A DNA stretch of 64,000 bases from Bythopirellula sp. Lineage in GTDB: Bacteria; Planctomycetota; Planctomycetia; Pirellulales; Lacipirellulaceae. Made by a program: the position numbers and the translations under genes. Under the pieces are notes generated by a model. It was not told the DNA's origin. It saw only the letters and a program-made list of their open reading frames with translations, and did not search any database. Location of the stretch: the NCBI GenBank assembly GCA_965216565.1, contig OZ244170.1, forward strand, positions 672,001 to 736,000, written 5' to 3'. Of this stretch, positions 26,007 through 58,464 are shown piece by piece (the first letter of the stretch is position 1; every line of letters starts with the position of its first letter).

Positions 26007-26020
26007 AGATCGAAGGTGGG

Positions 26021-27917: not shown

Positions 27918-27943
<26 letters not shown>
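26021..27943 (-). CDS. Exported FG-GAP/VCBS-repeat protein with ASPIC/UnbV domain (paralog of 22183-24069)
   Basis: Shared 'RKWD.P.VADLDQDG..DLLL.DH' and 'EIDYDNDGD.DLFLTR' motifs, C-terminal 'HVGLG...VRWTNG'. Confidence 0.85.
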
Positions 27944-31553: not shown

Positions 31554-31600
31554 GAGCCAGTTGCTCCTCGATTGCAATGTGAATTGGTAAAGACATCTTA

Positions 31601-36143: not shown

Positions 36144-36167
36144 TCTTGATCTCCAAACTTGCAATAC

Positions 36168-37598: not shown

Positions 37599-37608
37599 CA
37601 GGCGCTCA

Positions 37609-39092: not shown

Positions 39093-40181
39093 TTAACGCA
39101 CCACGCGCCCAGAGGCACTGCCACCCATGAGCGCCTCGACTTCAGCCCTTGTGGAGTAATTGAAATCACCTTTGATCGAATGCTTCAAACAAGAGGCGGC
39201 TACCGCGTACCTGACGGCTGTGGAGGGCTCGCTCAGCTCCGACGTTGTTAATGCAAAAATCAGCCCACCGGCAAACGAATCTCCCCCTCCCACGCGATCG
39301 ACAATGTTTTTTATTTCATGGGGCGAGTACTCGCCGTCCGCGTCTAGAGGTGCGTAATGGGCTTGTTGGTTCTGGGCATCGTAGAGCATCGCTCCCCAAT
39401 TGTTGTGGGTTGCGGAAACACTCTCGCGAAGTGTAATCGCTACTCGAGAGACGTTAGGAAACTGTTGCACAACTTGCCGCGCGACGTCAGGATAGCGAGA
39501 TGTATCGAGCTTTCCTTGATGAACATCTGTGTTGGCGGCCTGGATTCCCAAGACGTCGTGGCAATCTTCTTCGTTGGCAATCACTAAATCGATGTGTGGT
39601 AGTAGCTTTCGCATTGTCTCTTGAGCCAGTTCTCGCGGAGTATTTCCCTCGCTCCACTTCCACAGCTTGCCGCGAAAGTTCAGGTCGATAGAGACAGGTA
39701 TGCCTGCAGTCTTGGCTTTTTGAGCAGCCAGCAAAGTGGCCTCAGAGGCATTCTTCGAAATTGCTGGAGTGATCCCGCTGAGATGCAACCATCCGGCATC
39801 ATCAAAGATGGAGTCCCAGTCGTATTGATCGGGCGGAGTAAGCGCAACTGCGGAATCTGCCCGATCGTAGAGCACGTTGCTGGGGCGTTGATTGGCACCG
39901 GTTTCTAAAAAGTAAAGTCCCAGACGCCCGCTTTCAGTACGCAAGATGAATTGTGTATCAACTCCCAATGCCCGAACCGAATCTACGGTAGCATCTGCCA
40001 AGGCGTGCTTAGGCAAAGCGGTGACATAGCGGGCCGTTCCACCAAAGTTGCAGATCGATACTGCAACACTGGCTTCGGAACCAGCGTAGGTCATCTCGAA
40101 GTCACGAGCCTGACGCAATCGCAGGTTCTGAGGAGTCGCTAGCCGACCCATGATCTCACCGAATGTAACTACCGGTTTCAT
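39093..40181 (-). CDS. PfkB-family 2-keto-3-deoxy-sugar-acid kinase (KdgK-like; likely acts on KDGal here)
   Basis: 'VTFGEIMGRL', 'GLYFLETGA', 'DLNFRGKLW', 'VDRVGGGDSFAGG'. Confidence 0.9.
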   Translation of the reverse strand: MKPVVTFGEIMGRLATPQNLRLRQARDFEMTYAGSEASVAVSICNFGGTARYVTALPKHALADATVDSVRALGVDTQFILRTESGRLGLYFLETGANQRPSNVLYDRADSAVALTPPDQYDWDSIFDDAGWLHLSGITPAISKNASEATLLAAQKAKTAGIPVSIDLNFRGKLWKWSEGNTPRELAQETMRKLLPHIDLVIANEEDCHDVLGIQAANTDVHQGKLDTSRYPDVARQVVQQFPNVSRVAITLRESVSATHNNWGAMLYDAQNQQAHYAPLDADGEYSPHEIKNIVDRVGGGDSFAGGLIFALTTSELSEPSTAVRYAVAASCLKHSIKGDFNYSTRAEVEALMGGSASGRVVR

Positions 40182-40219
40182 TCACACGCTCCAAATACTT
40201 AAATGCACAACCATGATCG

Positions 40220-40939
40220 TTAGATAGTTTCAATGACTGAACTAGGATTCCCATCAAAACTAGACGAAACCGGTGCGTGTTTGCGGTTCAGCACGTTTCG
40301 CACATCAGTAGCCTGGGCAATGATCTTTACCCAATCTTCGTTGATAACAGACTCGGATTGAACAATCCAAGAACCTCCGACGGCTGGTATGTTCGGCTCA
40401 CTTAGGTAGTCGAGAATATTCGTAGAGTTCACCCCTCCGAGTGGGAAGTATTCGATACCAAGGTGGCTATAGGGAGCCGCCATGCTGCGGAGATAGCGCA
40501 CCCCGCCTAATTGCTCAGCAGGAAAAAACTTTACGAATCGGCACCCTAGATCGACTGCGGATTCCAATTCTGAAGGAGTTGCAATTCCCGGAGCGAAGGG
40601 CAGTCCCGCCTGCTTGGCTGCTTTTACGACACGTGGATTTAAGCCTGGAGCAACTCCAAAATCTGCACCTAATTCTTTGACTTCAGTTGCTGCTTCGGGA
40701 GTGAGGATTGTGCCAACTCCAACGAGCATATCCGGCACTTCTTGGCAGACTGCTTTCACAGCCTGCAGTGCAATTGGTGTTCTTAGCGTGAGTTCGATGG
40801 CAGTCACACCGCCGGCCAGCAATGCCTCGGCAATCGGTACAGCGTGCTCGATCTTTTCGACAGAAAAGCCAGCTACAACGCCCGCGGCTCTTAATCGATC
40901 GAGGACTTCTTGAGGGAAAATATCTGACATTATGTTCAT
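40220..40939 (-). CDS. KDPG/KDPGal aldolase (Eda family)
   Basis: 'IELTLRTP', 'VGVGT', 'PGIATPSE', Schiff-base 'KFFPA', 'GGSW'. Confidence 0.92.
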   Translation of the reverse strand: MNIMSDIFPQEVLDRLRAAGVVAGFSVEKIEHAVPIAEALLAGGVTAIELTLRTPIALQAVKAVCQEVPDMLVGVGTILTPEAATEVKELGADFGVAPGLNPRVVKAAKQAGLPFAPGIATPSELESAVDLGCRFVKFFPAEQLGGVRYLRSMAAPYSHLGIEYFPLGGVNSTNILDYLSEPNIPAVGGSWIVQSESVINEDWVKIIAQATDVRNVLNRKHAPVSSSFDGNPSSVIETI

Positions 40940-40951
40940 TTCGTTAGAGGA

Positions 40952-42352
40952 TCAATCGTCAATTAGTACCGACACACGTTTGAGAGTGAGGTACTCCTCT
41001 AAGCTGTACCGGGAACAGTCCTTGCCAATACCGCTTTGCTTGAGACCACCGTGAGGAAGTTGCACAGAATAGTGAGGTTCGTTGACGCAAACACTTCCTG
41101 CCTGAATTTCTCGTGCTGCGTGTAATCCAGTGGAGAGTTTGCTCGTGTAGACATAGGCAGCCAGGCCGTACTGTGTATCGTTAGCCAGCGCGATTTCGTT
41201 GTCATCATCGGTGTACTTAATCACTGGTAGCACAGGGCCAAATATCTCGTCCCGAGCAACCTTCATCCCCGTGGCAACGTCTCTCAAGATAGTCGGCTGG
41301 ATGAAATAACCATCGCCCTCAACCGCCTCGCCGCCACAAACGACCTTTGCACCTTCTGCGACTGCCGACTCGATCAGTCCCAGCGTATATTGTCGGGCTT
41401 CGTCGGTAATCATAGGCCCCATTTTTACATCTAGGGCACGTTCTTCGGCGTGTCGGATGAATTCGTCGTAGACAGATTCGTGGACAAAACATCGGTTGGG
41501 CGATACGCACACCTGGCCACAATTTGCAAACTTCAAATCAACAGTCTTGTTGGCTGCAGCTTGGATGTCTGCATCGGGATAGACGATTACAGGAGCATTG
41601 CCACCAAGCTCAACTGAAAAATGCTTGATGCTGGTGCAGGAAGAATTCATGACTTCCAGTCCGCCCCGAGTTGATCCGATCATCGTGACCATAGCGGGGA
41701 TTTCGCTCGTGAGCAGGCCTTTCGTCACGCTATGGTCGCTACACGTAATCATGTTGATCACGCCGTCAGGAATACCCGCTTCTTGAGCCAAGTAGACAGC
41801 CTCAAGCGATGCCAGTGGAGTCAGTGTTGAAGGTTTAATGATGGCACTGCAGCCAGAAGCAAGTACCGGACCTAGCTTGTAGCCAACATTCAGAAGCGGA
41901 AAATTCCATGCCAACATTCCCACAGCAACCCCCAAGGGTTGACGTAGGGTGTAGTGCAAGAATCGCCCTTCTGGGTCGTGCAGCACCGGTTGATCGAGTC
42001 TTTCAAACTCTTCCACAAAGAAACGTAAGCACGTGACGAGCATGCCAAAATCGTACTCCGCATTGTCCTGCGGCTTTCCAGTTTCGGCCATCAGCAGCGC
42101 AATAATACGCTCGCTATTCTGCTCCAAAACATCGGCGTAATTGAGAATTACCTTCTTACGATCGGCGGGAGTGGTGGACGACCATAACTTGAAGCCTTGC
42201 TGAGCAGACTCCAAGGACTTTTCGATTGAATCCGCATCCGCTTCCGGCACCTGGCCAATGACCCAACCCGTGGATGGGTCGGTCACGTCAATCGCTTTCT
42301 TCGTCGATACTTGCTTCCCACCAATGAGAATGGGATAAAGATTATCGGCCAT
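40952..42352 (-). CDS. NAD(P)-dependent aldehyde dehydrogenase; candidate 3,6-anhydro-D-galactose dehydrogenase (DauA-like)
   Basis: 'AWNFP', 'IKPS', 'ELGGNAP', catalytic 'GQVCVSP', 'EIFGPV'. Specificity inferred from context only. Confidence 0.88.
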   Translation of the reverse strand: MADNLYPILIGGKQVSTKKAIDVTDPSTGWVIGQVPEADADSIEKSLESAQQGFKLWSSTTPADRKKVILNYADVLEQNSERIIALLMAETGKPQDNAEYDFGMLVTCLRFFVEEFERLDQPVLHDPEGRFLHYTLRQPLGVAVGMLAWNFPLLNVGYKLGPVLASGCSAIIKPSTLTPLASLEAVYLAQEAGIPDGVINMITCSDHSVTKGLLTSEIPAMVTMIGSTRGGLEVMNSSCTSIKHFSVELGGNAPVIVYPDADIQAAANKTVDLKFANCGQVCVSPNRCFVHESVYDEFIRHAEERALDVKMGPMITDEARQYTLGLIESAVAEGAKVVCGGEAVEGDGYFIQPTILRDVATGMKVARDEIFGPVLPVIKYTDDDNEIALANDTQYGLAAYVYTSKLSTGLHAAREIQAGSVCVNEPHYSVQLPHGGLKQSGIGKDCSRYSLEEYLTLKRVSVLIDD

Positions 42353-43499
42353 TGATAAGCTCCGATTTTCCTACGCAGTGTTTTTCAATAGCATCCAAAT
42401 CGGGAGCAACTCCTAGTCCTGAAGTAGTTGGAACTTGAAGTACTCCCCCAGTAATTTCTAGACCGTCTTGAAATAATTCATCTCGAAGTGGATTAGGTGT
42501 TCGGTCCACTTCCAACATCGGCTCGGTGATCTCAGCACGACCGGGTTCTACATAAGCGGTCGCGAGAAAGTGTGCTGCGCATGCCAGGTTTATCTGTGTT
42601 CCCCAGCAATGTGGGATGACATTCACACCATGGGAAGAGGCGATTGCCCGAATCTTGAGTGCCTCGGTTGGACCGCCGCAGTACGCCATATCGGGTTGCA
42701 CGATGTGAACGCCACCACTTGCGAGCAGTTGTTGGAAACCCCATCGTGTCTGCTCACATTCACCCGTCGCAATCGGAACATCCAACTTGTCGGCTAACGT
42801 TCGAAATAGCCCAGTGTTCTCAGGCGAAAGTGGCTCTTCGAACCAGGAGAATCGCTGCTCTTCGAGCACTCTGCCAATCTCTATTGCTTCGGGTAGATCG
42901 AAGGCATGGTTAGAGTCGGCCATCAGCCTTGTATTCGGAAATTTAGCTCGCATTTCACGGATCTGAAGCTTATCGAACTCCAGGTTCTTCCCGACCTTGA
43001 TTTTGAGAGCCTTGAAGCCTTGTTCGACATACTCAGCCGCTTCGGTGAGAATAGTATTCAGCAGCTGAGGCTCAGGTTCTTTCCGAAAGTACATGCCGGT
43101 GGCGTAACAATGCACTTGGTCCCGCACCCGTCCTCCCAGGAGCTCAGATGCAGATATATTGAGTAGCTTTCCCTTGAGATCGAGCAGGGCCATGTCGATT
43201 CCCGAAATCGCGCCCATCATGATCCCTTTGCGGGCAAAATCGAGAGATGCCCGCCAGCAGTGTTGCCAGATAGACTCGTTTTTTAACGGGTCACGACCGA
43301 CTACCAGGGGGGCATAGAAGGAATCGATGGCCGATTGGGTTACTGCAGAAGGGCCATAGCATTCTCCCCATCCTGATTTTCCGGTTTCGTCTTGCACCTC
43401 AACTAGCAATGCATTTCGCTTGCTATAATGCCACTGAGAAAAGCCAAAGGACTCTTCCAGCTGGTGTTGAAGCCAATAGGTACGGATAGCACGTATCAT
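42342..43499 (-). CDS. Mandelate racemase/enolase-superfamily enzyme; candidate 3,6-anhydro-D-galactonate cycloisomerase (DauB-like)
   Basis: 'FSQWHY', 'GWGECYGP', 'KIKVG', 'DSNHA', 'WFEEP', 'GECE', 'PH.WG'. First gene of the catabolic arm, next to the ALDH. Confidence 0.85.
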   Translation of the reverse strand: MIRAIRTYWLQHQLEESFGFSQWHYSKRNALLVEVQDETGKSGWGECYGPSAVTQSAIDSFYAPLVVGRDPLKNESIWQHCWRASLDFARKGIMMGAISGIDMALLDLKGKLLNISASELLGGRVRDQVHCYATGMYFRKEPEPQLLNTILTEAAEYVEQGFKALKIKVGKNLEFDKLQIREMRAKFPNTRLMADSNHAFDLPEAIEIGRVLEEQRFSWFEEPLSPENTGLFRTLADKLDVPIATGECEQTRWGFQQLLASGGVHIVQPDMAYCGGPTEALKIRAIASSHGVNVIPHCWGTQINLACAAHFLATAYVEPGRAEITEPMLEVDRTPNPLRDELFQDGLEITGGVLQVPTTSGLGVAPDLDAIEKHCVGKSELINGR

Positions 43500-43691
43500 G
43501 CAATTCAATCACTTACTTAAACGCAGGAAAAACCTGAGTAGTATTCGCATCGAGCTGCACAGCGAATGCTGTAGGGCTCGATTCGGGACATTGCGTCTCC
43601 CCGCTTTCATTCAAGCGAAAGCGCCCATTTGCGTGGGGGATAATTTAAGCCAAGTTGTCATACCTGGACCCCGTGTTCCACACCACGGTCC

Positions 43692-43705
43692 ACCAGTATA
43701 CCAGT
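43692..43705 (-). promoter_or_regulatory. GntR-type operator upstream of the catabolic operon
   Basis: ACCAGTATACCAGT (minus strand ACTGGTATACTGGT, containing a TATACT -10 box). Confidence 0.6.
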
Positions 43706-43851: not shown

Positions 43852-43882
43852 TTGACTAGGTGACTTAGTTCCGGTATACCGG
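43852..43882 (+). promoter_or_regulatory. Sigma70-like promoter of gntR overlapped by a palindromic operator
   Basis: TTGACT (43852-57), 17 nt, TATACC (43875-80). Perfect palindrome CCGGTATACCGG at 43871-43882. Confidence 0.7.
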
Positions 43883-44006: not shown

Positions 44007-44753
44007 ATGGCTACTGATGGAAAAGCATCGTTTCTTCGCCACGAAGCTTACGTCTATATCCAGGAGCAGTTGATCGCTGGTCGTTGGGGTCTGAATGATC
44101 GCATTTCGGAGAAGGCAGTTGCCGATGAACTGGGCATCAGTCGTACTCCTGTTCGCGAGGCAATTCGAAAATTGACCACCGAGGGGCTCCTCTATCAGGT
44201 CCCTTCCAGCGGAACGTTCGTCACTAAGCCCGATCGGCAGAGCATTGTCGAAATGTTCGAGGTCCGGTTGGCGCTAGAAGGACTTGCAGCTGAAAAGGCT
44301 GCTTTGATTATTCGTGCTCCGGAAGTGCGGGAGCTACAACGTCAGTTCATTGTGATGCGAAATGCTAGTCGTGCTTTTCGCGATTCTGGCGAGGATTTTA
44401 TGAGTGGAGAGATCTTGGATAGATTTCTCGTGGCCGATCGTTCGATGCACAAGACACTTCTGAGTGTTGCAGATAACAGAATGGCCTGGAATATCGTACA
44501 TAATAGCCGAATTCAAACGTTGATTTTTGGTCTTCACTCTTACGAGCGAGATCTTCACCACATCTCAATTTCTCTGCGTGCACATGGCCGAATTCTATTA
44601 GCGGTAAAGCAGCGAGATGGCATCGCGGCAAAGCACTGGATGGAAAGCCACGTGCGGAACAGTATGGGCGATGCACTTCGCGCTTATGATCATCAAAACA
44701 GTGCAAAGAATGTCGGTTCACGAAGGGAATCGCCTAATCCCGAAGTGCTGTAG
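44007..44753 (+). CDS. GntR-family (FCD domain) transcriptional regulator
   Basis: HTH 'SEKAVADELGISRTPVREAI', 'EVRLALEGLAA', FCD 'H..IL.A...RD...A...M..H'. Confidence 0.93.
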   Translation: MATDGKASFLRHEAYVYIQEQLIAGRWGLNDRISEKAVADELGISRTPVREAIRKLTTEGLLYQVPSSGTFVTKPDRQSIVEMFEVRLALEGLAAEKAALIIRAPEVRELQRQFIVMRNASRAFRDSGEDFMSGEILDRFLVADRSMHKTLLSVADNRMAWNIVHNSRIQTLIFGLHSYERDLHHISISLRAHGRILLAVKQRDGIAAKHWMESHVRNSMGDALRAYDHQNSAKNVGSRRESPNPEVL

Positions 44754-46521: not shown

Positions 46522-49500
46522 ATGAATTTTCGAAATACCATATTTGCAGTAGCCACGTTCTCGCTAGCCGTGACTGTCACAACTCATTCGAGTCGAGCCC
46601 AAGCCACGCCCAATGTCGTGATGATCATCGCAGACGACGCGGGTTATGCGGACTGGGGGTTCATGAACGGGGTCAACGGTAGTAATCCTACACCGACTGA
46701 TATTCCCACGCCGAACCTCGATGCACTGGCAAATCGTGGCGTTAAGTTCTCCAGAGCTTATGTGCATTCCAATTGCCAGCCAACGCGTGCCGGTTTGGTT
46801 ACGGGCGGATATCCCTATCGCATCGGCAACGAAGTCGTTGGCAATAACTACTACTTGCCATCACAAGGTTTTGCACCTGATGGAGTTCCCGAGGGAGTTC
46901 CAGCGGCTACCGAGACCATCTGGGAACGCATGAAGTCGCAGGGCTATTCCACAGGTGCGATTGGCAAATGGCATTTGGGGCAAACTGAGGGAATCAATCG
47001 ACCGCAACATCAGGGAGTCGACGAATTCTACGGAATCTGGCACGGATCAAGAACCTATAGCGTCGGCAATGCTGGCCTGCCCGCAACGCAGCTATTGCGT
47101 GCAACAACTGTTGATCCTAATGGCTTGGTGAATGATACGGTTGTCGAGACCGATCCGAACAATAACGGCGAATACATCACCAACACTTTTGGTGACTACG
47201 CCGTGCAGTTCATCAACGAACATCACGACGACGCCGATCCTTTCTTCCTGTATCAGTCATTTACCGCCCCGCACACTCCAGTTGGAAATTCGCCTGACAT
47301 TAACGACCCAAGTATTGCTGGACTCACGGGCCAGAGAAAACAGTATGCATCGATGATGCTCACCATGGACAAGGAGATCGGCCGAATCATCGACCGCCTC
47401 GAAGATCCTGACGGAGACGGAAACACAAGTGACAGTATCACCGACGACACCATGATTGTGTTCATCAACGATAATGGTGGTGCCGATGCACTCTCTTCTT
47501 CTCCTAACGGGGCCGATAATGGTGTTCTTCGCCGCGGCAAAGGTACCCCTTGGGAAGGCGGTATTCGTGTACCCATGATTATTGCTGGGGCCGGGGTCAA
47601 TCAAGCTGTCGAGGGAACGACTTACAACAAGCCAGTCCACGGCATCGACATCCTGCCAACCGTGTTTAACGCAGGAGGAGGAACTTTCGGACCTGGCGAC
47701 ACAGGCATAGACGGGGTCGATCTGCTCCCGTTCATCAATGGCACAGACACCAACAACCCGCACGAAACCGTGCTGTATCGGCAACGCTCCCAGTTTGCCT
47801 TGATCAAAGACGATTGGAAACTCGTATGGTCGGGTGGATCCCCTTCGCCGAATCACCACCTTTACAATTTGGGGACGGACATTAGCGAAACCAACAACGT
47901 GGCCGGAGCGAATCCAGCATTAGTGGCTGAATTGCAACGCGACTTGACTGATCACGAAGTCGAGTTCGACAAGCAACGTTACGAAATCCTGGGCCAAACC
48001 TCTGAAACCACGATTAATATTTTCGATCACTTTACTCTCAATCCCACTGATCCTGGGGGCGGAGTCACCGATATCATCGAAGGCTCAACAGGCAATGGCG
48101 ACTTCGAAGATAGCGAAGATCCCGGCAACCCAGCCACAGTGACTGGCGCCATTGACTTTGCAAACACAGCGAACTGGTTCCACGCGAACAATACGGGTCC
48201 CAACGAGGGCATCAACTTTACGAACGACAGCCAGACGAACGGCAGCTCGCAAGGTGGTTCGCGGGCTGGCATGCCATTCCAGAACAGATTTCAGATCAAC
48301 GATTCTGGGTTCACCGTTACCGCAGCTGGCGAAACATTCGATCTAAGCTACGACTTTGGTGCCGGCGGAAACGATCTGAATTGGGATGGCGACGAGTTCT
48401 TGCGAGCGTTCCTTTTCACATCTACGACAGGTGTTGATGGCGATACGGTCGTCGGGGATATGACGGAAGTGGCCGTCGATATCTACAACGTTCCCGATCC
48501 AACTTCGAATCCCCAGTGGACGACCCACTCCTCCACAGCCTTCTACACAACAACCGCGGGCGATATCGGGAAGACGTTCTACTTTGGCATGGAGTTCAAG
48601 GATCCGGCGGTGACGAGCCTGTTGTTCCCACGCATCGATGTCATCGATCTTAGTGTCACTTCACCTGGTGGTGGGGGGGCCTCGGTGTCCGATTGGTCGG
48701 ACAATAACGCCTGGTTTGAAGGAGGCACGAGCAACTCCGAAACTCTGCTAAACGCCGATGCATTTGCTGGGGCCATTCTGGAATTTCCCACAACCGAGAC
48801 CTTCAGCTACGTGTCCAATAACGACATGATCCGCAACACAGGTCTGGAATTTATGCTGAATAAGATCATTCTCAGCGGCAATTTCACTGGTGGGTCTGAT
48901 CAAAACGCTACCATCCAGGGTAACGACTTGCTGTTTACGGATGACTTGAGTGGCGTTGGTCCTCAAATCGCAGTGGACGCCACGAATGGTGGCGGGAACG
49001 GTTTTAGCTACGACATTGATCTCAACTTGGTGATGTACGACGACCTCACGCTCACCGGCAATGGCGACGTGACTGTGACAATCAATGGTGTTGTCAGCAG
49101 CTATTTCGATCCGAGTGGTTTAATCAAAGACGGGACTAGCACGGTGGTGCTAACTGCAGCCAATACTTACGCCGGCGATACCTCGGTGCTGGACGGAACA
49201 CTCTCGCTCCAGAACGACTTCCTGGCCGACTTGGCTGATGTGTTGCTCACTACAGGCGGCATCTTAGACTTAGATTTTATTGGAACCGATACGATCGATT
49301 CACTGTTTATCGATGGCAACTCGCAAGCTGTGGGTACTTGGGGAGGAATCGGTTCGGGAGCGGATAATGAAACGAGCCTGATCACCGGGAGTGGTTTGTT
49401 GATGGTCTCTACGCTAGCTGGTCTGGCGGGCGACTTCGACAACAGTGGCCGAGTCGATGGACTCGACTTTCTCCTGTGGCAGCAAAACCCAAGTGTCGGC

Positions 49501-49635
49501 AGCCTTTCCGACTGGGAAGCCAACTATGGAATGACAGCCCCCATAGCTGCAAATGCCTCTGCGGTTCCAGAGCCTTCGTCAGCTGTTTTGCTCCTAGCGG
49601 GACTGGGGCTCGCCATTTCGCGCCGACGCAGATAG
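46522..49635 (+). CDS. Surface S1 sulfatase + inserted unknown module + autotransporter-associated beta-strand repeat + dockerin-like + PEP-CTERM
   Basis: Signal peptide, 'DDAGYAD', 'CQPTRA', 'GKWHLG', 'LIKDGTSTVVLTAANTYAGDTSVLDGTL', 'GDFDNSGRVDGLDFLLWQ', 'VPEPSSAVLLLAGLGLAISRRRR'. Confidence 0.9.
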   Translation: MNFRNTIFAVATFSLAVTVTTHSSRAQATPNVVMIIADDAGYADWGFMNGVNGSNPTPTDIPTPNLDALANRGVKFSRAYVHSNCQPTRAGLVTGGYPYRIGNEVVGNNYYLPSQGFAPDGVPEGVPAATETIWERMKSQGYSTGAIGKWHLGQTEGINRPQHQGVDEFYGIWHGSRTYSVGNAGLPATQLLRATTVDPNGLVNDTVVETDPNNNGEYITNTFGDYAVQFINEHHDDADPFFLYQSFTAPHTPVGNSPDINDPSIAGLTGQRKQYASMMLTMDKEIGRIIDRLEDPDGDGNTSDSITDDTMIVFINDNGGADALSSSPNGADNGVLRRGKGTPWEGGIRVPMIIAGAGVNQAVEGTTYNKPVHGIDILPTVFNAGGGTFGPGDTGIDGVDLLPFINGTDTNNPHETVLYRQRSQFALIKDDWKLVWSGGSPSPNHHLYNLGTDISETNNVAGANPALVAELQRDLTDHEVEFDKQRYEILGQTSETTINIFDHFTLNPTDPGGGVTDIIEGSTGNGDFEDSEDPGNPATVTGAIDFANTANWFHANNTGPNEGINFTNDSQTNGSSQGGSRAGMPFQNRFQINDSGFTVTAAGETFDLSYDFGAGGNDLNWDGDEFLRAFLFTSTTGVDGDTVVGDMTEVAVDIYNVPDPTSNPQWTTHSSTAFYTTTAGDIGKTFYFGMEFKDPAVTSLLFPRIDVIDLSVTSPGGGGASVSDWSDNNAWFEGGTSNSETLLNADAFAGAILEFPTTETFSYVSNNDMIRNTGLEFMLNKIILSGNFTGGSDQNATIQGNDLLFTDDLSGVGPQIAVDATNGGGNGFSYDIDLNLVMYDDLTLTGNGDVTVTINGVVSSYFDPSGLIKDGTSTVVLTAANTYAGDTSVLDGTLSLQNDFLADLADVLLTTGGILDLDFIGTDTIDSLFIDGNSQAVGTWGGIGSGADNETSLITGSGLLMVSTLAGLAGDFDNSGRVDGLDFLLWQQNPSVGSLSDWEANYGMTAPIAANASAVPEPSSAVLLLAGLGLAISRRRR

Positions 49636-49784
49636 GTCAATCAAGCTTGGAACGGAAATTATCGAGTTGAAATCCACATCGGACTTCCGTTTATGGTATT
49701 TCACCAATGCTGGAGGACGTTTCGAAGAATTCAGCCGTAAATGCTCATTTTTTGCGAGATAGGCAGGATATAACGAACAAATAA

Positions 49785-49816
49785 TTGACACCAATTTTAC
49801 CAACCGGTATACTGGT
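49785..49816 (+). promoter_or_regulatory. Sigma70 promoter overlapped by a GntR-type operator
   Basis: TTGACA (49785-90), 17 nt, TATACT (49808-13), within ACCGGTATACTGGT (49803-49816). Confidence 0.75.
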
Positions 49817-50074
49817 CTTCGTAATTGGTATCCGTCGAATCTGGAGCAGTCTATGCCTGCGATCAGTTCACGCTCGGAGCATCATACGTCTCATCTTTTT
49901 TCTGTTCACGAACTTAATCTGAGGGCTTCTCACTAAGCAGTTATTCAAAGCTCGATTTCATTGTCCTGCTGATGGATGACGCCCGCACTATTTCATAAAC
50001 AACACTGTTTTTCTCGATGCATCGAATGCATTGGATAACTTATCGTTACACACGGTCGAGGGAAGGAAGATCTA

Positions 50075-51694
50075 ATGAGCAACCTGATAAGACTGGCTCT
50101 CCTAGTCGTATTCATAACTGCCAGTAGCCAAGTTCAGGCGGTTGAGACCATCATCATAAATGGCACGGTTGGTGACGGCGACTTTGAGTTTCCAGAAGAT
50201 CCTAATAACCCTGGTTTAGTGACCGGAGCTGTCCCATTCACGGGGCATCCCAATTGGTTTCACGCCAACAATACCGGGCCAAATGAAACGATTCCTTTCT
50301 CACAAGATTCGCAAACTAACGGCAGTTCTCAGCCTGGTTCACGAGCCGGAATGCCGTTTCAAAATCGGGTTCAAATCAATAACACTGCCTATACCATCAC
50401 CGAGGCAGGAGTGCCATTCAACATCAGCTATGACTTTGGAGCGGGCGGTAACGCTGCCAATTGGACCGGCGACGAAGTAATGCGAACATTCTTGTTCGAG
50501 TCGTCAACGCCAGTCGATCCGAACACGATTGTTGGCGACATCACCGAACTCGGTGCCGATCTTTACAATATCGATCGAGCCAACGATCCCCAGTGGACAA
50601 CTAGATCGACAGATGCCTTCTATACGTCCACCGTTGGCGACATTGGCAAGACCGTGTATTTCGGAATGGAATTTCAAGACCCTGCGGGGCCCCTCCTTTT
50701 CCCCCGTATCGATGTCGTCCGCTTCACTGCGGGGACACCTGAAATCTACGATTTGGAATTCAATGCAGCCCTTAACCCTGCCGATGGCACGACCGCCTGG
50801 CAGCCCAATGTCGATCAAGGTCCGCAACCGGGTGGGCAGCCCACCGAATTCTTCACCTTCGCTGCTGCAGAATCCTTCGCTACGGTCAACGATCCTAGCG
50901 TTCCCGGAATTACGGGTAGCTACAGTGCCGGTGGAGTAGGGCGTCTGCCTGCCCCTTCGGAAGGTGCGGCCGGCCAGGTCGATAGTTCTTTTGAAGTTTG
51001 GTTCAAACCCAATAGTCTATTGGATGGCGAGCAAGTGATCGCTGATTTTGGCGGACTTTCAAATGGTTCGTACATTAGCCTCGATGACAATATCCTCAGT
51101 TTCTACACTACCTCGGGAGGTGCTTCCGGGACGGTATCGACTACGCTAAGCAGCGACGATTGGACACAAGTCGTTGCCAATTGGACCCCCACCGGTGACC
51201 TCGAACTGTTTGTGAATGGGCAGTCTGTTGACACTGCTTCGGGAACAGCGTTCAACAGATTTGGTGGCGGCAATCAGTGGGGACTTGGACAGGTGGGTGG
51301 CGACCCCAATGATGGACTTGCTATCGGAGGCCCGGTCACAACCGATCCCAACAATATCAGCGACGTCGATTTCGCTGGTGAAATTGGCCTATTCCGATAC
51401 TATCCGATTGCCCTTTCGGGTTCTCAAGTTCTAGATTCCTACGATGCCATTGCTGCTGCGGGAATCGCGGGCGATTTCGACGGTAGCGGTGTTGTAGACG
51501 GCCTCGATTTCCTGCTCTGGCAGACCGACCCCAATGTGGGTGATCTGGCTGACTGGGAGAATAACTACGGCACAGGCGGTTTGTCTGCGAATGTCTCTGC
51601 TGTTCCTGAGCCTGGTAGTTTGATGCTGTTTGCTTGTACGGCCATTTCTGTCGCGTTGCGGCGGAAGAGAGGTCTTACTTACTGCTTAAAGTAA
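50075..51694 (+). CDS. Surface protein: unknown module + LamG/ConA-like domain + dockerin-like + PEP-CTERM
   Basis: Signal peptide, shared 'GDGDFE...FPRIDVV' module, LamG 'SFEVWFKP...WTQVVANW...LFVNG', 'VPEPGS...RRKR'. Confidence 0.85.
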   Translation: MSNLIRLALLVVFITASSQVQAVETIIINGTVGDGDFEFPEDPNNPGLVTGAVPFTGHPNWFHANNTGPNETIPFSQDSQTNGSSQPGSRAGMPFQNRVQINNTAYTITEAGVPFNISYDFGAGGNAANWTGDEVMRTFLFESSTPVDPNTIVGDITELGADLYNIDRANDPQWTTRSTDAFYTSTVGDIGKTVYFGMEFQDPAGPLLFPRIDVVRFTAGTPEIYDLEFNAALNPADGTTAWQPNVDQGPQPGGQPTEFFTFAAAESFATVNDPSVPGITGSYSAGGVGRLPAPSEGAAGQVDSSFEVWFKPNSLLDGEQVIADFGGLSNGSYISLDDNILSFYTTSGGASGTVSTTLSSDDWTQVVANWTPTGDLELFVNGQSVDTASGTAFNRFGGGNQWGLGQVGGDPNDGLAIGGPVTTDPNNISDVDFAGEIGLFRYYPIALSGSQVLDSYDAIAAAGIAGDFDGSGVVDGLDFLLWQTDPNVGDLADWENNYGTGGLSANVSAVPEPGSLMLFACTAISVALRRKRGLTYCLK

Positions 51695-51701
51695 TTTGAT
51701 T

Positions 51702-51733
51702 TCGGCCCTGCTCCGGGGCAGGGGTAGGGCTGA
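51702..51733 (+). terminator. Stem-loop after PEP-CTERM gene (terminator or mRNA stabiliser)
   Basis: TCGGCCCTGCTCC/GGGGTAGGGCTGA, a 13-bp stem with G.U pairs that form only on the + strand RNA. Confidence 0.55.
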
Positions 51734-51828
51734 GAAAAAGTTTTTGTGTTTAGTGTTTTGAGTAGAATTGACTGGGGGCTTTTGCCTTTTCAACTATTTT
51801 TTGTTTCTTTTTGAGGGAGACGAGTCTA

Positions 51829-52566
51829 ATGAATTACATGACAAAATTCTTAGCGGCATTGGCTATCTTGGCCATGGCCACCAACGCCCAAGCGGTCAGT
51901 ATCATTGGTGGATCGCTGGGCAACGGTGATTTCAACGCTGGTGGTGGTGGTACTGCAGGTGGAGCTCAAACCTACAACCAAACAGTAAATTGGTTCAACG
52001 CGCAGGGCACGGCTGCTGACGATGACATCAACTTTACTAACTCATCGCAAATGGGTGGCAGCACCGATCCCGATAACGGGACGACTACACGAGGTGGAAT
52101 GCCTTTCCAAAATCGAGTCCAAATCAATGACACTGGCTACACGATCGGAGCCGCGGGTGAGGTATTTAGCTTGAGTTATGATTTCGGAGCTGGTGGTGGT
52201 CCCGCTTCTTGGAACGGTGGTGGTGACGAAACGATGCGGACTTTCTTGTTCACTTCGACCACCCCGATCGACCCTAACACGGTCGAAGCCGATATGACTG
52301 AACTCGGTGGCGACGACTACGACATCGATCGAGCCAACGATGGTCAATGGACGACTCGTTCCGTACCAGTCTTCTACACCTCGACACTCGCCGATGTTGG
52401 TAGCACTGTGTACTTCGGAATGGAGTTCCTAAACGATTCCGGGAACCTGCTTTTCCCACGCATCGACGTTGTCCAACTAGATGTAACACCAATTCCCGAG
52501 CCATCCAGTCTGGCTTTGCTGGGAACGATAGTTGCCGCGGGACTATCCGTGAGACGTCGACGCTAG
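51829..52566 (+). CDS. Surface protein: unknown module alone + PEP-CTERM
   Basis: GAGGGAGA RBS, signal peptide, one copy of the shared module, 'IPEPSSLALLGTIVAAGLSVRRRR'. Confidence 0.88.
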   Translation: MNYMTKFLAALAILAMATNAQAVSIIGGSLGNGDFNAGGGGTAGGAQTYNQTVNWFNAQGTAADDDINFTNSSQMGGSTDPDNGTTTRGGMPFQNRVQINDTGYTIGAAGEVFSLSYDFGAGGGPASWNGGGDETMRTFLFTSTTPIDPNTVEADMTELGGDDYDIDRANDGQWTTRSVPVFYTSTLADVGSTVYFGMEFLNDSGNLLFPRIDVVQLDVTPIPEPSSLALLGTIVAAGLSVRRRR

Positions 52567-52605
52567 CCTGAAGAGATTCTCTCTCTGTTTTTGTTGATCT
52601 ACATT

Positions 52606-52635
52606 GGATCGCCCCGCGATTGAGCGGGGCGGTCC
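52606..52635 (+). terminator. GC-rich stem-loop, probable intrinsic terminator
   Basis: GGATCGCCCCGC-GATTGA-GCGGGGCGGTCC followed by TTGTT. Confidence 0.6.
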
Positions 52636-52916
52636 TTGTTGATCTAAAACGGCACAGTGCCGGCATGCCTTAGCGGTTTGCCAGTTGTTGCTTGTTGTGG
52701 AATCTTTGCGCAATCACTGTCTGTGAACTTTGTTACGTGCAATCTTGTTAAGTTGCATTCGCTGCGCTCATCGAGCGCGTTAGAAACATCTGGTAAGGAG
52801 TTTTGTGACTCATTAAGTCAAATTTAGGGATCAATTTTGAACTAAGCCAAACACTAGCCTGAGAGCAAATCGGAACTTGTCGTTTGGTTGCAAACATTCA
52901 AGCAGGAGTCATACCG

Positions 52917-54542
52917 ATGAAACGTTGCAAGTGGTCAGCTCTATTAGCGATCCTTCTCATGTTGTCGACCAGTCGTGTGCAGGCAATAGAGACCTTTATT
53001 CTTGGAGACGGTTTCGGTGTGAATGGAATCGCATCGTCTGGGAATGGGAACTTCGAGGCAAACTCGGGAACGCTTTCGTTCGCTGATGTCACAAATTGGC
53101 ACAATATCAGTGGCGACGACTCGGCCGTGAATTTTGGCACCAGCTCAGGCATGGTCGGTAGCCCGGAGCCTTCTTCCCAGGGCGCATTCCTTACGGATGC
53201 CAAAGCTGGAAACGACTTTGGTTACACTATTCTTGCAGGTGATGTGGGTGTTCCGTTCAACGCTCGCCTGGCTTTGCATCGATTTGGCGGAGGATATAGC
53301 GGCAGTGAATTTGTGGAAGTGTCTCTTTTTACGTCTACCACCGGTGTCGACCCGAATACTGTGGCCGGTGATCTTACCACACTTGGTTCAGTGAACATCC
53401 CGATTACTGGCAGTTGGGTTCGAGAAGAGAGACTCAACTTTTACTCACCATCGCTCGCTGACGTGGGAAAAACGGTCTATCTAGGAATAGACTTGGAAGA
53501 TCCAAACGGAGTCGGATCAATTTTTCCACGTATTGATGTTGTTCGACTCTCGAAGGGCGCCGCTGATTCATTCGGCTTGCAATTCAACGCGGCTCTAAAT
53601 CCGGTGAATGGTACTGGACTGTGGGAGCCCAATATTGACACCGCCGCCGGAGGCGCATTTTTCCCAACCGAGTTCTTTACCTTTGGCTCCACCACAAGCT
53701 CTGTCGCTGTAAACGATCCTAGCGTTCCGGGTATCACAGCAAGTTACGATGTTGGTGCTCAAGGTCGACAATTCTTCGATCCGAACACAGGTTCCAACGC
53801 CAATGCCCCAGGCTACCAGGGTGGGTTCGATGCCTCGTTCGAAGTCTGGTTTAAACCGGATGATCTCGCTGGTGGCGATCAAATCATTCTCGAAATGGGT
53901 GGTAGTGGAAACGGTTCGTACTTTAGTCTGGAAGATGACGTCCTTTCGTTCTATTCGCGAAGTGGTGGCGTCAATGGTCCGACGCTGCAAACGACGCTCA
54001 CGACGGCAGAGTGGACTCAAGTGGTTGGCACCTGGGAAGGTTCCACCGAGACGCTTCAACTTTTCGTCAATGGTCAGTTTGTTACCAGTGCCGTTGCAGC
54101 CGGAGACCTAGTCGAATGGGCTGGTGGCAACGCCTGGGGCGTAGGCCAGATTGGCTCATCCGATAATCTGACTGGGCTAGACGACATTGCCACCGGTGGG
54201 CCCTTGGGTTCCGAAACGTCTGCCAACGACTTTGTGTTCGATGGTGAGATTGCCATCATCGAGTTGTATGACAAAGTTTTAAGCGCCTCGGAAGTGACCG
54301 ACGCTTACAACGCGGTTACCGGAATTGCCGGTGACTTCGACAACAGCGGCGTTGTCGATGGCCTCGACTTCCTCCTGTGGCAGACAGACACCAGCATTGG
54401 CGATTTGGCCGATTGGGAAGCCAACTATGGTACCGGCGGACTATCGGCGGCGGGCACGGCAGTACCTGAGCCTAGTGCACTCGCTTTGTTGATCCCACTG
54501 CTATGTGGTGCTGCCCTCCGACGAACTCGCGTCAGCGCATAG
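52917..54542 (+). CDS. Surface protein: divergent unknown module + LamG-like + dockerin-like + PEP-CTERM
   Basis: AGGAG RBS before ATG 52917, signal peptide, 'GNGNFE...FPRIDVV', 'SFEVWFKP', 'GDFDNSGVVDGLDFLLWQ', 'VPEPS'. Confidence 0.85.
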   Translation: MKRCKWSALLAILLMLSTSRVQAIETFILGDGFGVNGIASSGNGNFEANSGTLSFADVTNWHNISGDDSAVNFGTSSGMVGSPEPSSQGAFLTDAKAGNDFGYTILAGDVGVPFNARLALHRFGGGYSGSEFVEVSLFTSTTGVDPNTVAGDLTTLGSVNIPITGSWVREERLNFYSPSLADVGKTVYLGIDLEDPNGVGSIFPRIDVVRLSKGAADSFGLQFNAALNPVNGTGLWEPNIDTAAGGAFFPTEFFTFGSTTSSVAVNDPSVPGITASYDVGAQGRQFFDPNTGSNANAPGYQGGFDASFEVWFKPDDLAGGDQIILEMGGSGNGSYFSLEDDVLSFYSRSGGVNGPTLQTTLTTAEWTQVVGTWEGSTETLQLFVNGQFVTSAVAAGDLVEWAGGNAWGVGQIGSSDNLTGLDDIATGGPLGSETSANDFVFDGEIAIIELYDKVLSASEVTDAYNAVTGIAGDFDNSGVVDGLDFLLWQTDTSIGDLADWEANYGTGGLSAAGTAVPEPSALALLIPLLCGAALRRTRVSA

Positions 54543-54613: not shown

Positions 54614-54658
54614 CCTATTTGAGTGTAGGGACTGTACTTGAACAGAGACGAAACTGTC

Positions 54659-57307
54659 ATGCAACTTCAATTCAAGGCTGCTCTGTGCACCGTATTTGTT
54701 CTGGCCACCTTTGCTACGAGTTTACAGGACATCGCACACTCTTCTCCGAACGTTATCGTCATCATCACCGACGACGCAGGTTATGCCGACTTCGGATTCA
54801 TGAACGGCCTCAGCGGCGAGACTTCTGAGATTCCGACGCCAAACCTCGATGCCCTGGCAGCCAGAGGCGTAAAATTCTCCCGGGCCTATGTTGCCGCTAA
54901 TTGCCAACCCACCCGAGCAGCGATCGTCACCGGTGGCTATCAACAACGTATCGGCAACGAGAGCGTGGGAAACAATCTCACTTATGCGGTGGATGACGCC
55001 CAGATTGCGACTCGCGGTTTCGAAGGTGTTCCCGTCGAGACCGACACGATTTGGGACCGCATGAAGGGACTTGGATATTCAACAGGAGCCATTGGAAAGT
55101 GGCACCTTGGTCAGCACGCGGATTCAGCCAATGGCCAGGTGCTGGGTAATCGTCCCCAGAATCAAGGCGTGGACGAGTTCTACGGTTTTTGGCACGGAGA
55201 CCGAAACTACAAATTGGGCACCTACGGGGCTAGCCAGGTAACTCGTTCGCTTCGTGAAACAATAGTCGATCCGAATGGCAACGTCACAGATACGGTTGTC
55301 GAGCACGCCCCGAAGCATACCCAGCCAAGCGATGCATACTTGACCGAGGCTCTGGGAGATTACGCAGTCGACTTTATCGATGACCATCACGATGACGCGA
55401 ACCCATTCTTCCTCTACCAATCATTCGGTGCTCCTCACAAGGTTTGGACTGAATCGCCGGATTACAATGACCCGGCAATCACTCACTTATCCGATCCACG
55501 CCGGAAAGTCGCATCGATGATGATCACGATGGACAAGCAAGTAGGCAGAATCCTCGACAAGTTAGACGACCCCGACGGCGATCCAAACACCAGCGACGGC
55601 ATTGCCGACGACACCTTGGTAGTCTTTATCAATGACAACGGCGGGGTTAACAATAACCCACCGGGGACGGATAACGGAGTCTTGAATCGTTGGAAAGGAT
55701 CTCCGCTGGAGGGTGGAATTCGAGTCCCGATGATTGTGGCCGGCGCAGGCGTCAACGCGGGAGTCGAAGGGACTACCTACACTAAGCCTGTTCACGGCAT
55801 CGACATTCTACCGACGGCATTTGCCGCGGCCGGGGGAACTTTTGGTCCCGCAGAAGACAAAATCGATGGCGTAGACATATTGCCTTTTATCAATGGCACT
55901 GACACTTCCAGTCCCCACGATGTTCTAGTCCATCGCTGGCGAGGAAATTTTGCGGTAGTGAAGGGCGACTGGAAACTCGTCAATAGAAAGAACCATAAGT
56001 CGAATCCGAATCAATATGAACTCTACAACGTTACCAATGATATTGGAGAAACGAATGACGTCATCGGGAATGCAACTCATTCAGCATTGGTTGCTGAGTT
56101 GAAGCGTGATTTGACCAACCACGAGGCGTTTTTTGACAAGCCTCGTTATGCAATCCTCAATCGGACTCCAGAGACAGAACCGCTGAACTTGTTCGACCAT
56201 TTCGTCTTTCGTCCTGGCGTCCATACGGATTGGTCTGGCGGTGCTGAGGATGGTGATCTCGAAACCGATCCGGGAGTTTCAACCAATTGGTTTGAAGCGG
56301 GCACTACGAATCAGAATTTACTTTTTCGTTCAGACTCCTTCGCTGGCGCAGTGCTGGAATTCCCCACACATAGCAGCAACTACACAGCAAATAACGACAT
56401 GGTGCGGAAGACTGGCCTAGAATTCATGCTGAACAAAATCATTCTCAGCGGCACGTTCAACAGTGGGTCGAATCGTTCGGCTACGATCCAGGGCAACAAT
56501 CTCTTGTTCACCAACGATCTGAGTGGCGTTGGCCCTCAATTCGCAGTAGATGCCACCGACACTGGTGGCGGTACCTTTACCTACGATATTGACCTGAACC
56601 TGATCATGTACGACGACCTCACATTCACCGGTGATGGCGACGTAACGGTCAATGTCAACGGCGTGGTCAGCAGTTACTTTGATCCCAGCGGACTCATCAA
56701 AGACGGCACCAGCACTGTTGCTCTAACCGCCAACAACACCTACACCGGCGATACCACGGTGCTGGACGGCACGCTTTCTCTCCAGAACGACTTCCTAGCA
56801 GACTTGGCCGATGTGTTTCTCACCACAGGCGGATTTTTGAACTTGGACTTTATTGGGACCGACACTATCGATTCGCTATTTATCGATGGCTCCACCCAAG
56901 CGGTGGGAACCTGGGGAGCCATTGGCTCGGGAGCGGATAACGAGACGAGTCTTATCACCGGTTCGGGGCTCTTGATGGTTTCGACCCTGGCTGGATTGGC
57001 AGGTGATTTTGACGGCAACGGACGCGTCGACGGTTTGGACTTCCTCAAATGGCAGACTGATGGCCTGTCGGCCAGTGATCTGGCCGATTGGGAAGCTAAC
57101 TACGGGATGGTTGCACCTAACACTGCCAACGTGACCACCGTGCCTGAACCAGCGAGCTGGGCGATTCTAGCTATTGCCGCCTGCCTCTTGGGATATGTTC
57201 GGTCTAGGCCTCTCGAATGCAAACTTAGGCCATTTTCCGTATCGACGCATTCACAATCATACCCAGGAAAGCTCACGTCTAGATTGCAAGAGCCTCCTCA
57301 AGTGTAA
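54659..57307 (+). CDS. Surface S1 sulfatase + autotransporter-associated beta-strand repeat + dockerin-like + PEP-CTERM (paralog of 46522)
   Basis: 'DDAGYADFGFMNG', 'CQPTRA', C-terminal region nearly identical to 46522-49635, 'VPEPASW'. Confidence 0.9.
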   Translation: MQLQFKAALCTVFVLATFATSLQDIAHSSPNVIVIITDDAGYADFGFMNGLSGETSEIPTPNLDALAARGVKFSRAYVAANCQPTRAAIVTGGYQQRIGNESVGNNLTYAVDDAQIATRGFEGVPVETDTIWDRMKGLGYSTGAIGKWHLGQHADSANGQVLGNRPQNQGVDEFYGFWHGDRNYKLGTYGASQVTRSLRETIVDPNGNVTDTVVEHAPKHTQPSDAYLTEALGDYAVDFIDDHHDDANPFFLYQSFGAPHKVWTESPDYNDPAITHLSDPRRKVASMMITMDKQVGRILDKLDDPDGDPNTSDGIADDTLVVFINDNGGVNNNPPGTDNGVLNRWKGSPLEGGIRVPMIVAGAGVNAGVEGTTYTKPVHGIDILPTAFAAAGGTFGPAEDKIDGVDILPFINGTDTSSPHDVLVHRWRGNFAVVKGDWKLVNRKNHKSNPNQYELYNVTNDIGETNDVIGNATHSALVAELKRDLTNHEAFFDKPRYAILNRTPETEPLNLFDHFVFRPGVHTDWSGGAEDGDLETDPGVSTNWFEAGTTNQNLLFRSDSFAGAVLEFPTHSSNYTANNDMVRKTGLEFMLNKIILSGTFNSGSNRSATIQGNNLLFTNDLSGVGPQFAVDATDTGGGTFTYDIDLNLIMYDDLTFTGDGDVTVNVNGVVSSYFDPSGLIKDGTSTVALTANNTYTGDTTVLDGTLSLQNDFLADLADVFLTTGGFLNLDFIGTDTIDSLFIDGSTQAVGTWGAIGSGADNETSLITGSGLLMVSTLAGLAGDFDGNGRVDGLDFLKWQTDGLSASDLADWEANYGMVAPNTANVTTVPEPASWAILAIAACLLGYVRSRPLECKLRPFSVSTHSQSYPGKLTSRLQEPPQV
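57050..57150 (+). repeat. 101-bp direct repeat, copy 1 (dockerin-like/PEP-CTERM linker)
   Basis: Matches 58291-58391 with 2 mismatches (compared by eye). Confidence 0.9.
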
Positions 57308-57321: not shown

Positions 57322-58464
57322 ATGGAACGGCCCCGGATGGCTTTGCCAATTTGTCTTGCTTCGCATGCAATCTTGACGTGCGCAATATCCGCGAATGCTC
57401 AGGACTGGTCTAGTTATTCTGTTCCAGCAAGCGCGGGAACGGGTCAGCATTGGGTACTAGATCCGAATCTGTCTGACGAATTCAACTACGACAGTGCAAC
57501 TCCCGCAGGCCAATCTGAATTCTTCGCTAACTGGCAGGACTGGAAGCCGAACTTCTTTCTCGGTCCCGGAGCGACATACTTTTCGCAGGAGAATTGGTTT
57601 GTGGATAGTGGTGCTATGACCATTTTTGGTTCTCGAGTTCCTCTGGAAGATCAGATCGTCAATACCTCCGATCCCAATTTCACTCGCACCACCTATACCA
57701 GCTTTATCACCTCCAAAGCCAAGCTCCAACCTGGAAGTTACACCGAGGCCATGATCAAGGGAGGTGGCACTGCCTTGTCGACAAATTTTTGGTTGATCGA
57801 CGACGGGGATGTTACTGAAATTGATGTTCTTGAGATCTACGGAGATACCGATTGGTTTCGTAAGCGGCCAAGAACGAATGCGATCTTTCAGATACGTGAT
57901 CAGAACGGAAATCTGATCCAGAAAATTGGGAGTCAGATGACTCATCCCAACAATGATATCAACTACTCACAAACCTGGCACCGCTATGGGGTTTACTGGG
58001 CCAGTACGACAGATCTTGAGTTTTATATCGATGGCAATCTAGTTCGAACCATCAATCTTCCGAGCGAAGTTGTCGACCCTACCGGGAACTACATGAACAG
58101 AGATCTGCGTCTTATCTTCGATATGGAAGCTCATGCTTGGCGCGGAGCAGCGGGAATTCCTTCTGACGCGGAATTGAATGACTGGAGTATCAACAATATG
58201 CAAATCGATTGGGTCCGCACTTATCGTGCTGCAGAACTAAGCGGCGATTTCGACTCTGACGGACGAGTCGATGGCTTGGATTTTCTCAAGTGGCAGACTG
58301 ATGGCCTGTCGGCCAGTGATCTGGCCGATTGGGAAGCTAACTACGGTATGGTTGCACCTAGCACTGCCAACGTGACCACCGTGCCTGAACCGTCCACATT
58401 GGTACTAATCACTCTTTCACTTGGCCTGATTCGGCGACAATCCAATAGAAACAGAAACGTGTAA
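57322..58464 (+). CDS. Surface GH16 (beta-agarase/porphyranase-like) + dockerin-like + PEP-CTERM
   Basis: 'QDWSSYSVPASAG...SDEFNY', 'GPGAT', catalytic 'EIDVLE', 'HRYGVYW', 'IDWVRTY', 'VPEPST'. Confidence 0.85.
   Translation: MERPRMALPICLASHAILTCAISANAQDWSSYSVPASAGTGQHWVLDPNLSDEFNYDSATPAGQSEFFANWQDWKPNFFLGPGATYFSQENWFVDSGAMTIFGSRVPLEDQIVNTSDPNFTRTTYTSFITSKAKLQPGSYTEAMIKGGGTALSTNFWLIDDGDVTEIDVLEIYGDTDWFRKRPRTNAIFQIRDQNGNLIQKIGSQMTHPNNDINYSQTWHRYGVYWASTTDLEFYIDGNLVRTINLPSEVVDPTGNYMNRDLRLIFDMEAHAWRGAAGIPSDAELNDWSINNMQIDWVRTYRAAELSGDFDSDGRVDGLDFLKWQTDGLSASDLADWEANYGMVAPSTANVTTVPEPSTLVLITLSLGLIRRQSNRNRNV
58291..58391 (+). repeat. 101-bp direct repeat, copy 2
   Basis: Matches 57050-57150 with 2 mismatches. 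Confidence 0.9.

Follow-up and report, generated by a model that had tools for sequence, protein, structure and literature searches.

What is a sequence module of some 190–200 residues doing in four neighbouring surface proteins of a planctomycete, and to which polymer, if any, does it attach? The module lies in a 64,000-nucleotide stretch of the Bythopirellula sp. genome (assembly GCA_965216565.1, contig OZ244170.1, positions 672,001 to 736,000), referred to here as the window and numbered from its first letter. A first-pass annotation of the window had proposed a galactan-binding module of no named family. Our analysis indicates that the module probably represents a new carrageenan-binding family of planctomycetes and verrucomicrobia, akin to the carbohydrate-binding modules (CBMs). 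The proposed ligand narrows from galactan to, likely, carrageenan or its desulfated products. Judged from sequence, the module is likely a mobile, non-catalytic jelly-roll domain that binds the polymer or partly desulfated products of it.

Four copies occur in the window, all on the forward strand, in frame and within predicted secreted proteins, at the places first annotated; only the end of the divergent copy moves, from 53560 to 53555. S1 (46522..49635; signal peptide, sulfatase, module, PATR, PEP-CTERM) carries copy 1 (48064..48660, residues 515–713) after its catalytic domain and before the C-terminal region that bears PATR. Copy 2 (50141..50730, residues 23–219) is the N-terminal domain of L1 (50075..51694; signal peptide, module, LamG_3, PEP-CTERM), and copy 3 (51895..52488) accounts for all of mature M up to the PEP-CTERM tail (51829..52566; signal peptide, lone module, PEP-CTERM). 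L2 (52917..54542; signal peptide, divergent module, LamG_3, PEP-CTERM-like tail) begins with copy 4 (52986..53555), a divergent subtype. The starts of M and L2 are likely 51829 and 52917, given database counterparts of 245 and 541 amino acids. The PEP-CTERM cut-off (PF07589) is passed by S1, L1 and M; the motif of L2, which has no Pfam match, and all four signal peptides were recognised by eye. Identity among the four copies is 34–64%: S1 and L1 share 64% over 200 amino acids (E 1e-78), S1 and M 51–53%, L1 and M 51%, and the L2 copy matches the other three at 34–38% (E 6e-13 to 3e-29). A hidden Markov model of the four copies, run against 39,264 six-frame open reading frames (ORFs) of the 5.2-Mb genome, recovered only these four (E ≤ 3e-78), with the next match at E 1.1. 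The adjacent S2 (54638..57307, +), a paralogue of S1, offers a natural control: it is 57% and 75% identical to S1 on the two sides of the module and lacks the module exactly there, where Gly-rich linkers border it in S1. An origin in low complexity or misassembly was ruled out, since the copies have diverged, keep the reading frame and recur in synteny in three other genomes. As a separate observation, the region of ~240 residues that follows the sulfatase domain in S1 (48690–49430) and S2 (56280–57000) is 75% identical; a single PATR repeat is recognised in it, and it is possibly a beta-helix stalk.

No named family accounts for the module, as the annotation had supposed: profile searches of Pfam, together with NCBIfam and the PDB, gave no family match. 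The module region itself has no Pfam match at E ≤ 1. Twenty-four diverse members gave nothing beyond chance in Pfam (four single-member matches, best E 0.061) and no match in NCBIfam, and PDB sequences, searched with phmmer and with the profile, gave no family and two chance matches (E 0.63 and 1.8). None of the 24 matches CBM_4_9 (PF02018) or the HpiC1-like family (PF22825) at E ≤ 10, and the profile matches no PDB CBM sequence; at this level the module is a member neither of CBM_4_9 nor of the Stig cyclases. The ESM Atlas returned unnamed clusters (0.90–0.92) and clusters of DUF642, CBM_4_9 and GH101 domains (0.89), which are taken as leads only. The plasmid search gave no match to the module, and a metagenome scan gave only two short loci. 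No description of the module was found in the literature searched, a scope outside which CAZy, subscription papers and supplements lie, or in passages of PMC13514251 and PMC10880615. The module may still coincide with a recently named CBM family that lacks a Pfam model or structure.

For the fold, AlphaFold2 was applied to the M module with a 26-row alignment, giving a nearly all-beta model (predicted local distance difference test, pLDDT, 88.4; predicted template modelling score 0.88). Foldseek matched it to Eph ligand-binding, gingipain adhesin, GH51, FilC1, CBM4-2 and CBM11 domains. The VIA structural comparison against 48,161 chains ranked a GH51 domain (Z 13.7), a Stig cyclase (13.0) and CBM4-2 (12.6) highest, with a spread of ~1 unit, followed at Z 10–11 by CBM16 (10.9–11.1), CBM27, CBM4, a porphyran CBM, CBM61 and CBM22. 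All three approaches bear out the beta-jelly-roll suggested earlier, and in the predicted model the fold is that of a galactose-binding-like jelly roll. The module also behaves as a discrete, independently folding unit: M is predicted alone with the pLDDT above, stand-alone proteins exist, and the module is present in S1 and absent from S2. A homodimer prediction of M, made without folded controls, scored 0.00 and was counted neither way.

Relative to known jelly rolls, the module is alike in fold to the CBM4, CBM16, CBM22 and CBM27 domains of PF02018, including the Zobellia CBM16 (PMC5802718), with 152 residues of CBM4-2 aligned at a root-mean-square deviation (rmsd) of 3.1. It shares with CBM_4_9 an N-terminal NGxF...W motif, a last-strand Asp and attachment to carbohydrate-active enzymes (CAZymes). 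However, it is only 10–15% identical, is unmatched by PF02018 in 24 of 24 members, is 30–50 residues longer, has an invariant Arg189, is often stand-alone with PEP-CTERM and, when fused, is mostly joined to sulfatases. The top structural match, the N-terminal CBM-like domain of MgGH51 (6ZPS; rmsd 2.9, 157 aligned), is 11% identical and, unlike the module, permanently built into a fungal arabinofuranosidase. Binding of kappa-carrageenan is documented for a jelly-roll CBM16 carried by a kappa-carrageenase (PMC5802718); on arrays, carrageenans produce unspecific signals (PMC5802718). The founder of CBM92, the Cgk16A module, likewise binds carrageenan as part of a carrageenase, and one of its conserved Arg residues has been proposed to contact sulfate (via PMC11039641), but CBM92 is a beta-trefoil, and the full-length jelly-roll matches of the module model argue against such a fold here.

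Three protein searches (26, 40 and 129 matches, the last at E ≤ 0.001 among 1.84 billion sequences) yielded 182 proteins. Domains covering at least 150 profile positions were kept and split at 120 bits, scores thinning out between 133 and 95 bits, into a core of 97 domains in 86 proteins and a weaker set of 76 domains in 73 proteins. Named relatives come from Lacipirellulaceae, Adhaeretor mobilis and Planctomycetes bacterium MalM25. F13, W33, N78, G101, D167, G169 and R189 are invariant in the first 68 full-length domains, D191 is present in 67 of the 68, and W106, F119, W152 and Y173 are further conserved aromatics. The NGDFE-like start noted previously persists as a G9-N10-G11-D/N12-F13 motif, accompanied by the last-strand D191; by analogy with the fold class, the two are a putative structural calcium site, and the domain is likely calcium-stabilised. 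The module is rare, being strong in 4 of 120 family genomes and 4 of 301 genomes of a verrucomicrobial order, with two matches in 401 phylum genomes, its own included. Most of the weaker set is a sister family (P0093–P0177; profile–profile E 6e-30) with a W-R-D-A motif, which occurs either by itself, with a PEP-CTERM or type IX secretion system tail, or joined to a range of CAZymes (GH16, PF11790 hydrolases, esterases, lyase-like chondroitinase-B-like domains and PhoD domains); it probably has other ligands and is a candidate second CBM family. P0166, a distant profile match at the edge of the sister family, passes CBM_4_9 (29.2 bits; cut-off 25.9), and P0177, also distant, nearly passes the HpiC1-like model (26.6 bits; cut-off 27) and aligns end to end with the module profile, so that the module is tied to the clan by sequence.

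Among the 86 core proteins, 37 are stand-alone (28 with a PEP motif), 8 carry LamG, 29 carry a catalytic domain and 12 are others, a Pfam scan of 11 of these last finding no catalytic family; the three modes of display first seen in the window (alone, paired with LamG or grafted onto an enzyme) thus recur across the core. Each of the 29 catalytic partners that can be recognised is similar to a carrageenan enzyme. Eighteen are sulfatases of the clade of S1 and S2, and the nearest solved structure to the S1 sulfatase is an exo-4S-kappa-carrageenan sulfatase (6PRM, E 7e-77). Five S1_19A-like sulfatases, 52–54% identical to the window gene at 36168, have one to three N-terminal module copies, whereas the four GH167-like partners (for P0062: 6PTM, E 6e-68; 9WHD 'GH167', E 5e-62) and the two GH16_13-like partners (for P0053: 9IJC, E 5e-37) carry it C-terminally. 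S1_19A is an endo-G4S sulfatase, S1_19B an exo-sulfatase, and GH167 releases beta-neocarrabiose (PMC6923384); we infer that 6PTM, a deposit of that paper, is BovGH167. For GH16_13, 9INT is a beta/kappa-carrageenase (PMC13168452). Like a CBM, the module is appended to carbohydrate-active enzymes (GH167-like, GH16 and sulfatase fusions). It occurs ahead of the catalytic domain, behind it, behind PATR and in two or three tandem copies. The variable position in S1/S2-clade sulfatases, either before or after the PATR region, together with a quick tree in which modules of same-clade sulfatases spread over different clades, indicates repeated shuffling.

The genomic setting points the same way. To the left of the module genes lies a carrageenan operon with an S1_19A homologue, two GH16_13-like genes, GH127, a transporter and four dauABCD enzyme families. 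On the reverse strand are the two GH16_13-like genes (33211..36164), whose best match is GH16_13, a close homologue of the iota-carrageenan 4-sulfatase S1_19A (36168..37676; 6B0J, E 1e-181), a gene of GH127, the family holding alpha-3,6-anhydro-D-galactosidases (29571..31577), and an MR/MLE enzyme, aldehyde dehydrogenase, KDPG aldolase and PfkB kinase (39093..43508), which correspond to the dauB, A, D and C families of the dau pathway (PMC6262041). These dau labels are assigned from families and context: the best plasmid match of the DauB-like protein is 42%, and the aldehyde dehydrogenase has no plasmid match at E 1e-120, DauA being unconfirmed by homology. The components of a kappa/iota-carrageenan utilisation locus (S1_19 sulfatases, a GH16 carrageenase, GH127/129 and, by presumed orthology, dauABCD) are all present, and the cluster likely digests carrageenan, a gel of red seaweeds. 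No SusC/D pair was found among the window ORFs scanned. On the other side of the module genes lies a PEP-CTERM GH16 gene without module, nearest to beta-agarases (57322..58464, +; 3WZ1, E 2e-36). Two FG-GAP/ASPIC-UnbV proteins and an FAD oxidoreductase also sit inside the carrageenan cluster (22183–27943); FG-GAP homologues (55–62%) recur in G013 and the verrucomicrobial loci L035, L051 and L055.

The layout with the carrageenan operon is syntenic in three family genomes (G001, G002 and G013), which with the present genome are the only ones among 120 to hold a full-length orthologue of the GH16_13-like gene; the four share a single locus, whether inherited or transferred, and do not count as separate tests. 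The L2 counterpart in G001 is a frameshifted LamG fragment without the module (L017:4887-5650). Nine of ten further loci (one of 11 was left out), including four verrucomicrobial ones with other gene orders, hold or neighbour homologues of the cluster enzymes, as do G679 and G793. Across the 301 genomes of the verrucomicrobial order, all four strong-module carriers fall among the nine with an S1_19A-like gene (E ≤ 1e-160), and three of them among the four with a DauB-like gene; three of these carriers had contributed sequences to the profile, having been picked for the module and not for its context.

A shared candidate regulatory site may connect module genes to the operon. Two copies of the 12-bp palindrome CYRGTATACYRG lie in the interval separating the dauB-like operon from gntR (43693-43704, 43871-43882), and a third covers the –10 box upstream of L1. 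The gntR gene (44007..44753, +) encodes a GntR/FCD regulator, the candidate repressor of the cluster, and the best promoter-like site is the sigma70-like promoter upstream of L1 (49785..49815, +; 11/12 match), whose –10 box lies inside the palindrome at 49804-49815, a candidate GntR operator. Exact palindromes number five in the genome, against 1.3 expected, all at the dauB-like operon/gntR, L1 or a GH167-like gene, with two of them ~530 bp upstream of the last, 2 Mb from the window. This GH167-like gene (G000:C1:2674651-2677617; L056:6652-9618) likely belongs to the carrageenan regulon as an outlier and shares 78% identity with a gene within the carrageenan locus of G679. In G001, G002 and G013, a relaxed 10-bp palindrome precedes both the dauB-like gene and the first non-enzyme module gene, and in four of four family genomes TTGAC-17-TATACT, together with the palindrome, is conserved upstream of that module gene; strict sites number two in G001 and none in G013. 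The palindrome fits the GntR consensus N-GT-N-AC-N (PMC7641319) and suggests one regulon of the dauB-like operon, a module gene and the GH167-like gene. The AusR alginate regulon of Zobellia offers a parallel (PMC7641319), with a GntR/FadR-type regulator, N-GT-N-AC-N palindromes on promoters and distant member genes, but differs in sugar, phylum and operator sequence, and the regulation proposed here is a prediction.

Taken together, these features would fit the following scheme. Release of GntR from the palindrome they have in common would induce the catabolic operon, module genes and GH167-like gene in concert. Signal peptides would export the module proteins, and the PEP-CTERM tails would retain them on the surface. 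Stand-alone and LamG-paired copies might then hold the cell on the gel or catch released chains, and the fused copies, up to three in tandem, would keep sulfatases and hydrolases on the polymer. The weakest step is recognition itself. A median net charge of –16 makes a broad electrostatic patch unlikely, and in so acidic a domain the site is probably either a small pocket lined by the invariant Arg189 and aromatic residues close to it or a calcium-bridged contact, which may favour low-sulfate (beta/kappa) stretches. The register of Arg189 against HpiC1, a Stig cyclase, suggests an Arg-centred pocket for one sulfate or one neocarrabiose unit. Low-sulfate carrageenan is a plausible ligand, since the S1_19A, GH16_13 and GH167 partners define a desulfation-first route.

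Several observations weigh against a carrageenan-binding role. The fold of the model cannot by itself tell a binder from an enzyme, and Stig cyclases align with more residues (166 vs 152) and at higher identity (18–19% vs 13%) than CBM4-2. M is acidic, with 25 Asp and Glu, 6 Arg and no Lys, and the median charge given above holds for the core domains at large; for carrageenan CBMs, in contrast, Arg–sulfate contacts are cited (PMC13514251). The 29 fusions fall into four kin groups and so represent about four fusion events; the substrate of S1 is read from its nearest structure only, and the GH16_13-like partners are just 32% identical to the window GH16. Because five of the nine verrucomicrobial genomes with an S1_19A-like gene have no core copy, including one with a DauB-like gene (G802), the pathway does not depend on the module; moreover, locus L026 showed no marker. 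The sister family on unrelated CAZymes indicates that the scaffold is not tied to carrageenan, and the agarase-like GH16 leaves room for agar. As for regulation, the palindrome pattern derives from sites within the window itself; of 21 loci scanned, 16 lack it, every verrucomicrobial locus among them, and terminator-like hairpins after L1 and M make the operator link direct for L1 only.

Some of these points suit the notion that the module binds another red-algal wall glycan (agar, porphyran or a minor polymer accompanying carrageenan) or is a calcium-stabilised, non-binding spacer keeping enzymes at a distance from the cell, which we nevertheless consider unlikely. The acidic composition and the agarase-like gene would fit it, as would the spread of the sister family over enzymes from GH16 to PhoD, and S2 and several enzymes of the S1/S2 clade lack the module. 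However, a spacer would be useless as the sole domain of 37 proteins, and each of 68 domains compared keeps Asn78 and Arg189. Nor was any core copy found fused to an agarase-like enzyme, and the 40-kb stretches of G001, G002 and G013 contain no equivalent of the agarase-like gene.

The likeness to Stig cyclases raises a further and still less probable alternative, namely that the module is a small enzyme on a CBM scaffold, performing an unassigned surface step on carrageenan or its oligosaccharides. HpiC1, FamC1 and FilC1 (PF22825) share the fold over 164–167 residues (Z 12.8–13.2, 16–19% identity) and have a similar length; those at Z 13.0–13.2 tie for the best fold match. In HpiC1, a dimer, the catalytic acid D214 lies in a loop pocket two residues before the calcium ligand D216 (10.1101/173674). 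The last-strand Asp of the module stands at the place of D216, but Arg189 occupies the register of D214 in 68 of 68 domains and aligns with an Asp of P0177, an equivalence drawn from sequence register and P0177 rather than superposition, which argues against Stig-type chemistry. The near-passing score and end-to-end alignment of P0177 favour an enzyme, as do the 37 of 86 core proteins that stand alone, one of them under a candidate operator, whereas no member among the 24 matches the HpiC1-like model. The HpiC1-like domain of P0146, searched against the PDB, returned nothing useful. Stig cyclases belong to alkaloid clusters, and the module to carrageenan genes, where it takes fused and tandem forms. 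Repetition in two or three tandem copies on unrelated enzymes is typical of CBMs. We therefore give little credence to a CBM-derived surface enzyme, lone or grafted, whose Arg-centred pocket would remodel carrageenan under a carrageenan repressor. Least probable of all is a protein–protein docking domain by which anchored lone copies tether secreted module-bearing enzymes into a surface complex: the fusions P0027, P0053 and P0062 lack PEP-CTERM, the P0027 genome has stand-alone PEP-CTERM copies, and the dimeric HpiC1 shares the fold, but S1 carries its own PEP-CTERM anchor and needs no tether, and no complementary partner domain co-occurs in the architectures seen.

The carrageenan-binding modules named in the literature we found, CBM16 (PMC5802718) and the CBM92 founder (via PMC11039641), both reside on flavobacterial carrageenases. 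If the carrageenan-binding assignment is correct, a planctomycete and verrucomicrobial family would provide a new probe of carrageenan fine structure, perhaps selective for desulfated stretches, and would show repressor-controlled surface proteins keeping these bacteria on algal gel. S1 and S2 form a ready pair for the effect of a binding module on a polysaccharide sulfatase, and the palindrome gives a starting point for studying how planctomycetes regulate carrageenan use.

Other features of the window stand apart from this argument. Two DUF1559 pilin-like genes and a small Pfam-less protein flank the surface-protein cluster (44856–46396 and 58512–59564), and DUF1559 recurs beside module genes in several loci. 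Selenocysteine machinery adjoins the cluster at 11684–17432, comprising selA, selB and a selD-like gene that combines AIRS with a pyridine-nucleotide oxidoreductase. An ORF of 351 amino acids at 60138–61193 has no Pfam or NCBIfam match. Finally, a crude count, false positives included, gave 288 six-frame ORFs of the genome with a [VI]PEP motif in the last 60 residues.

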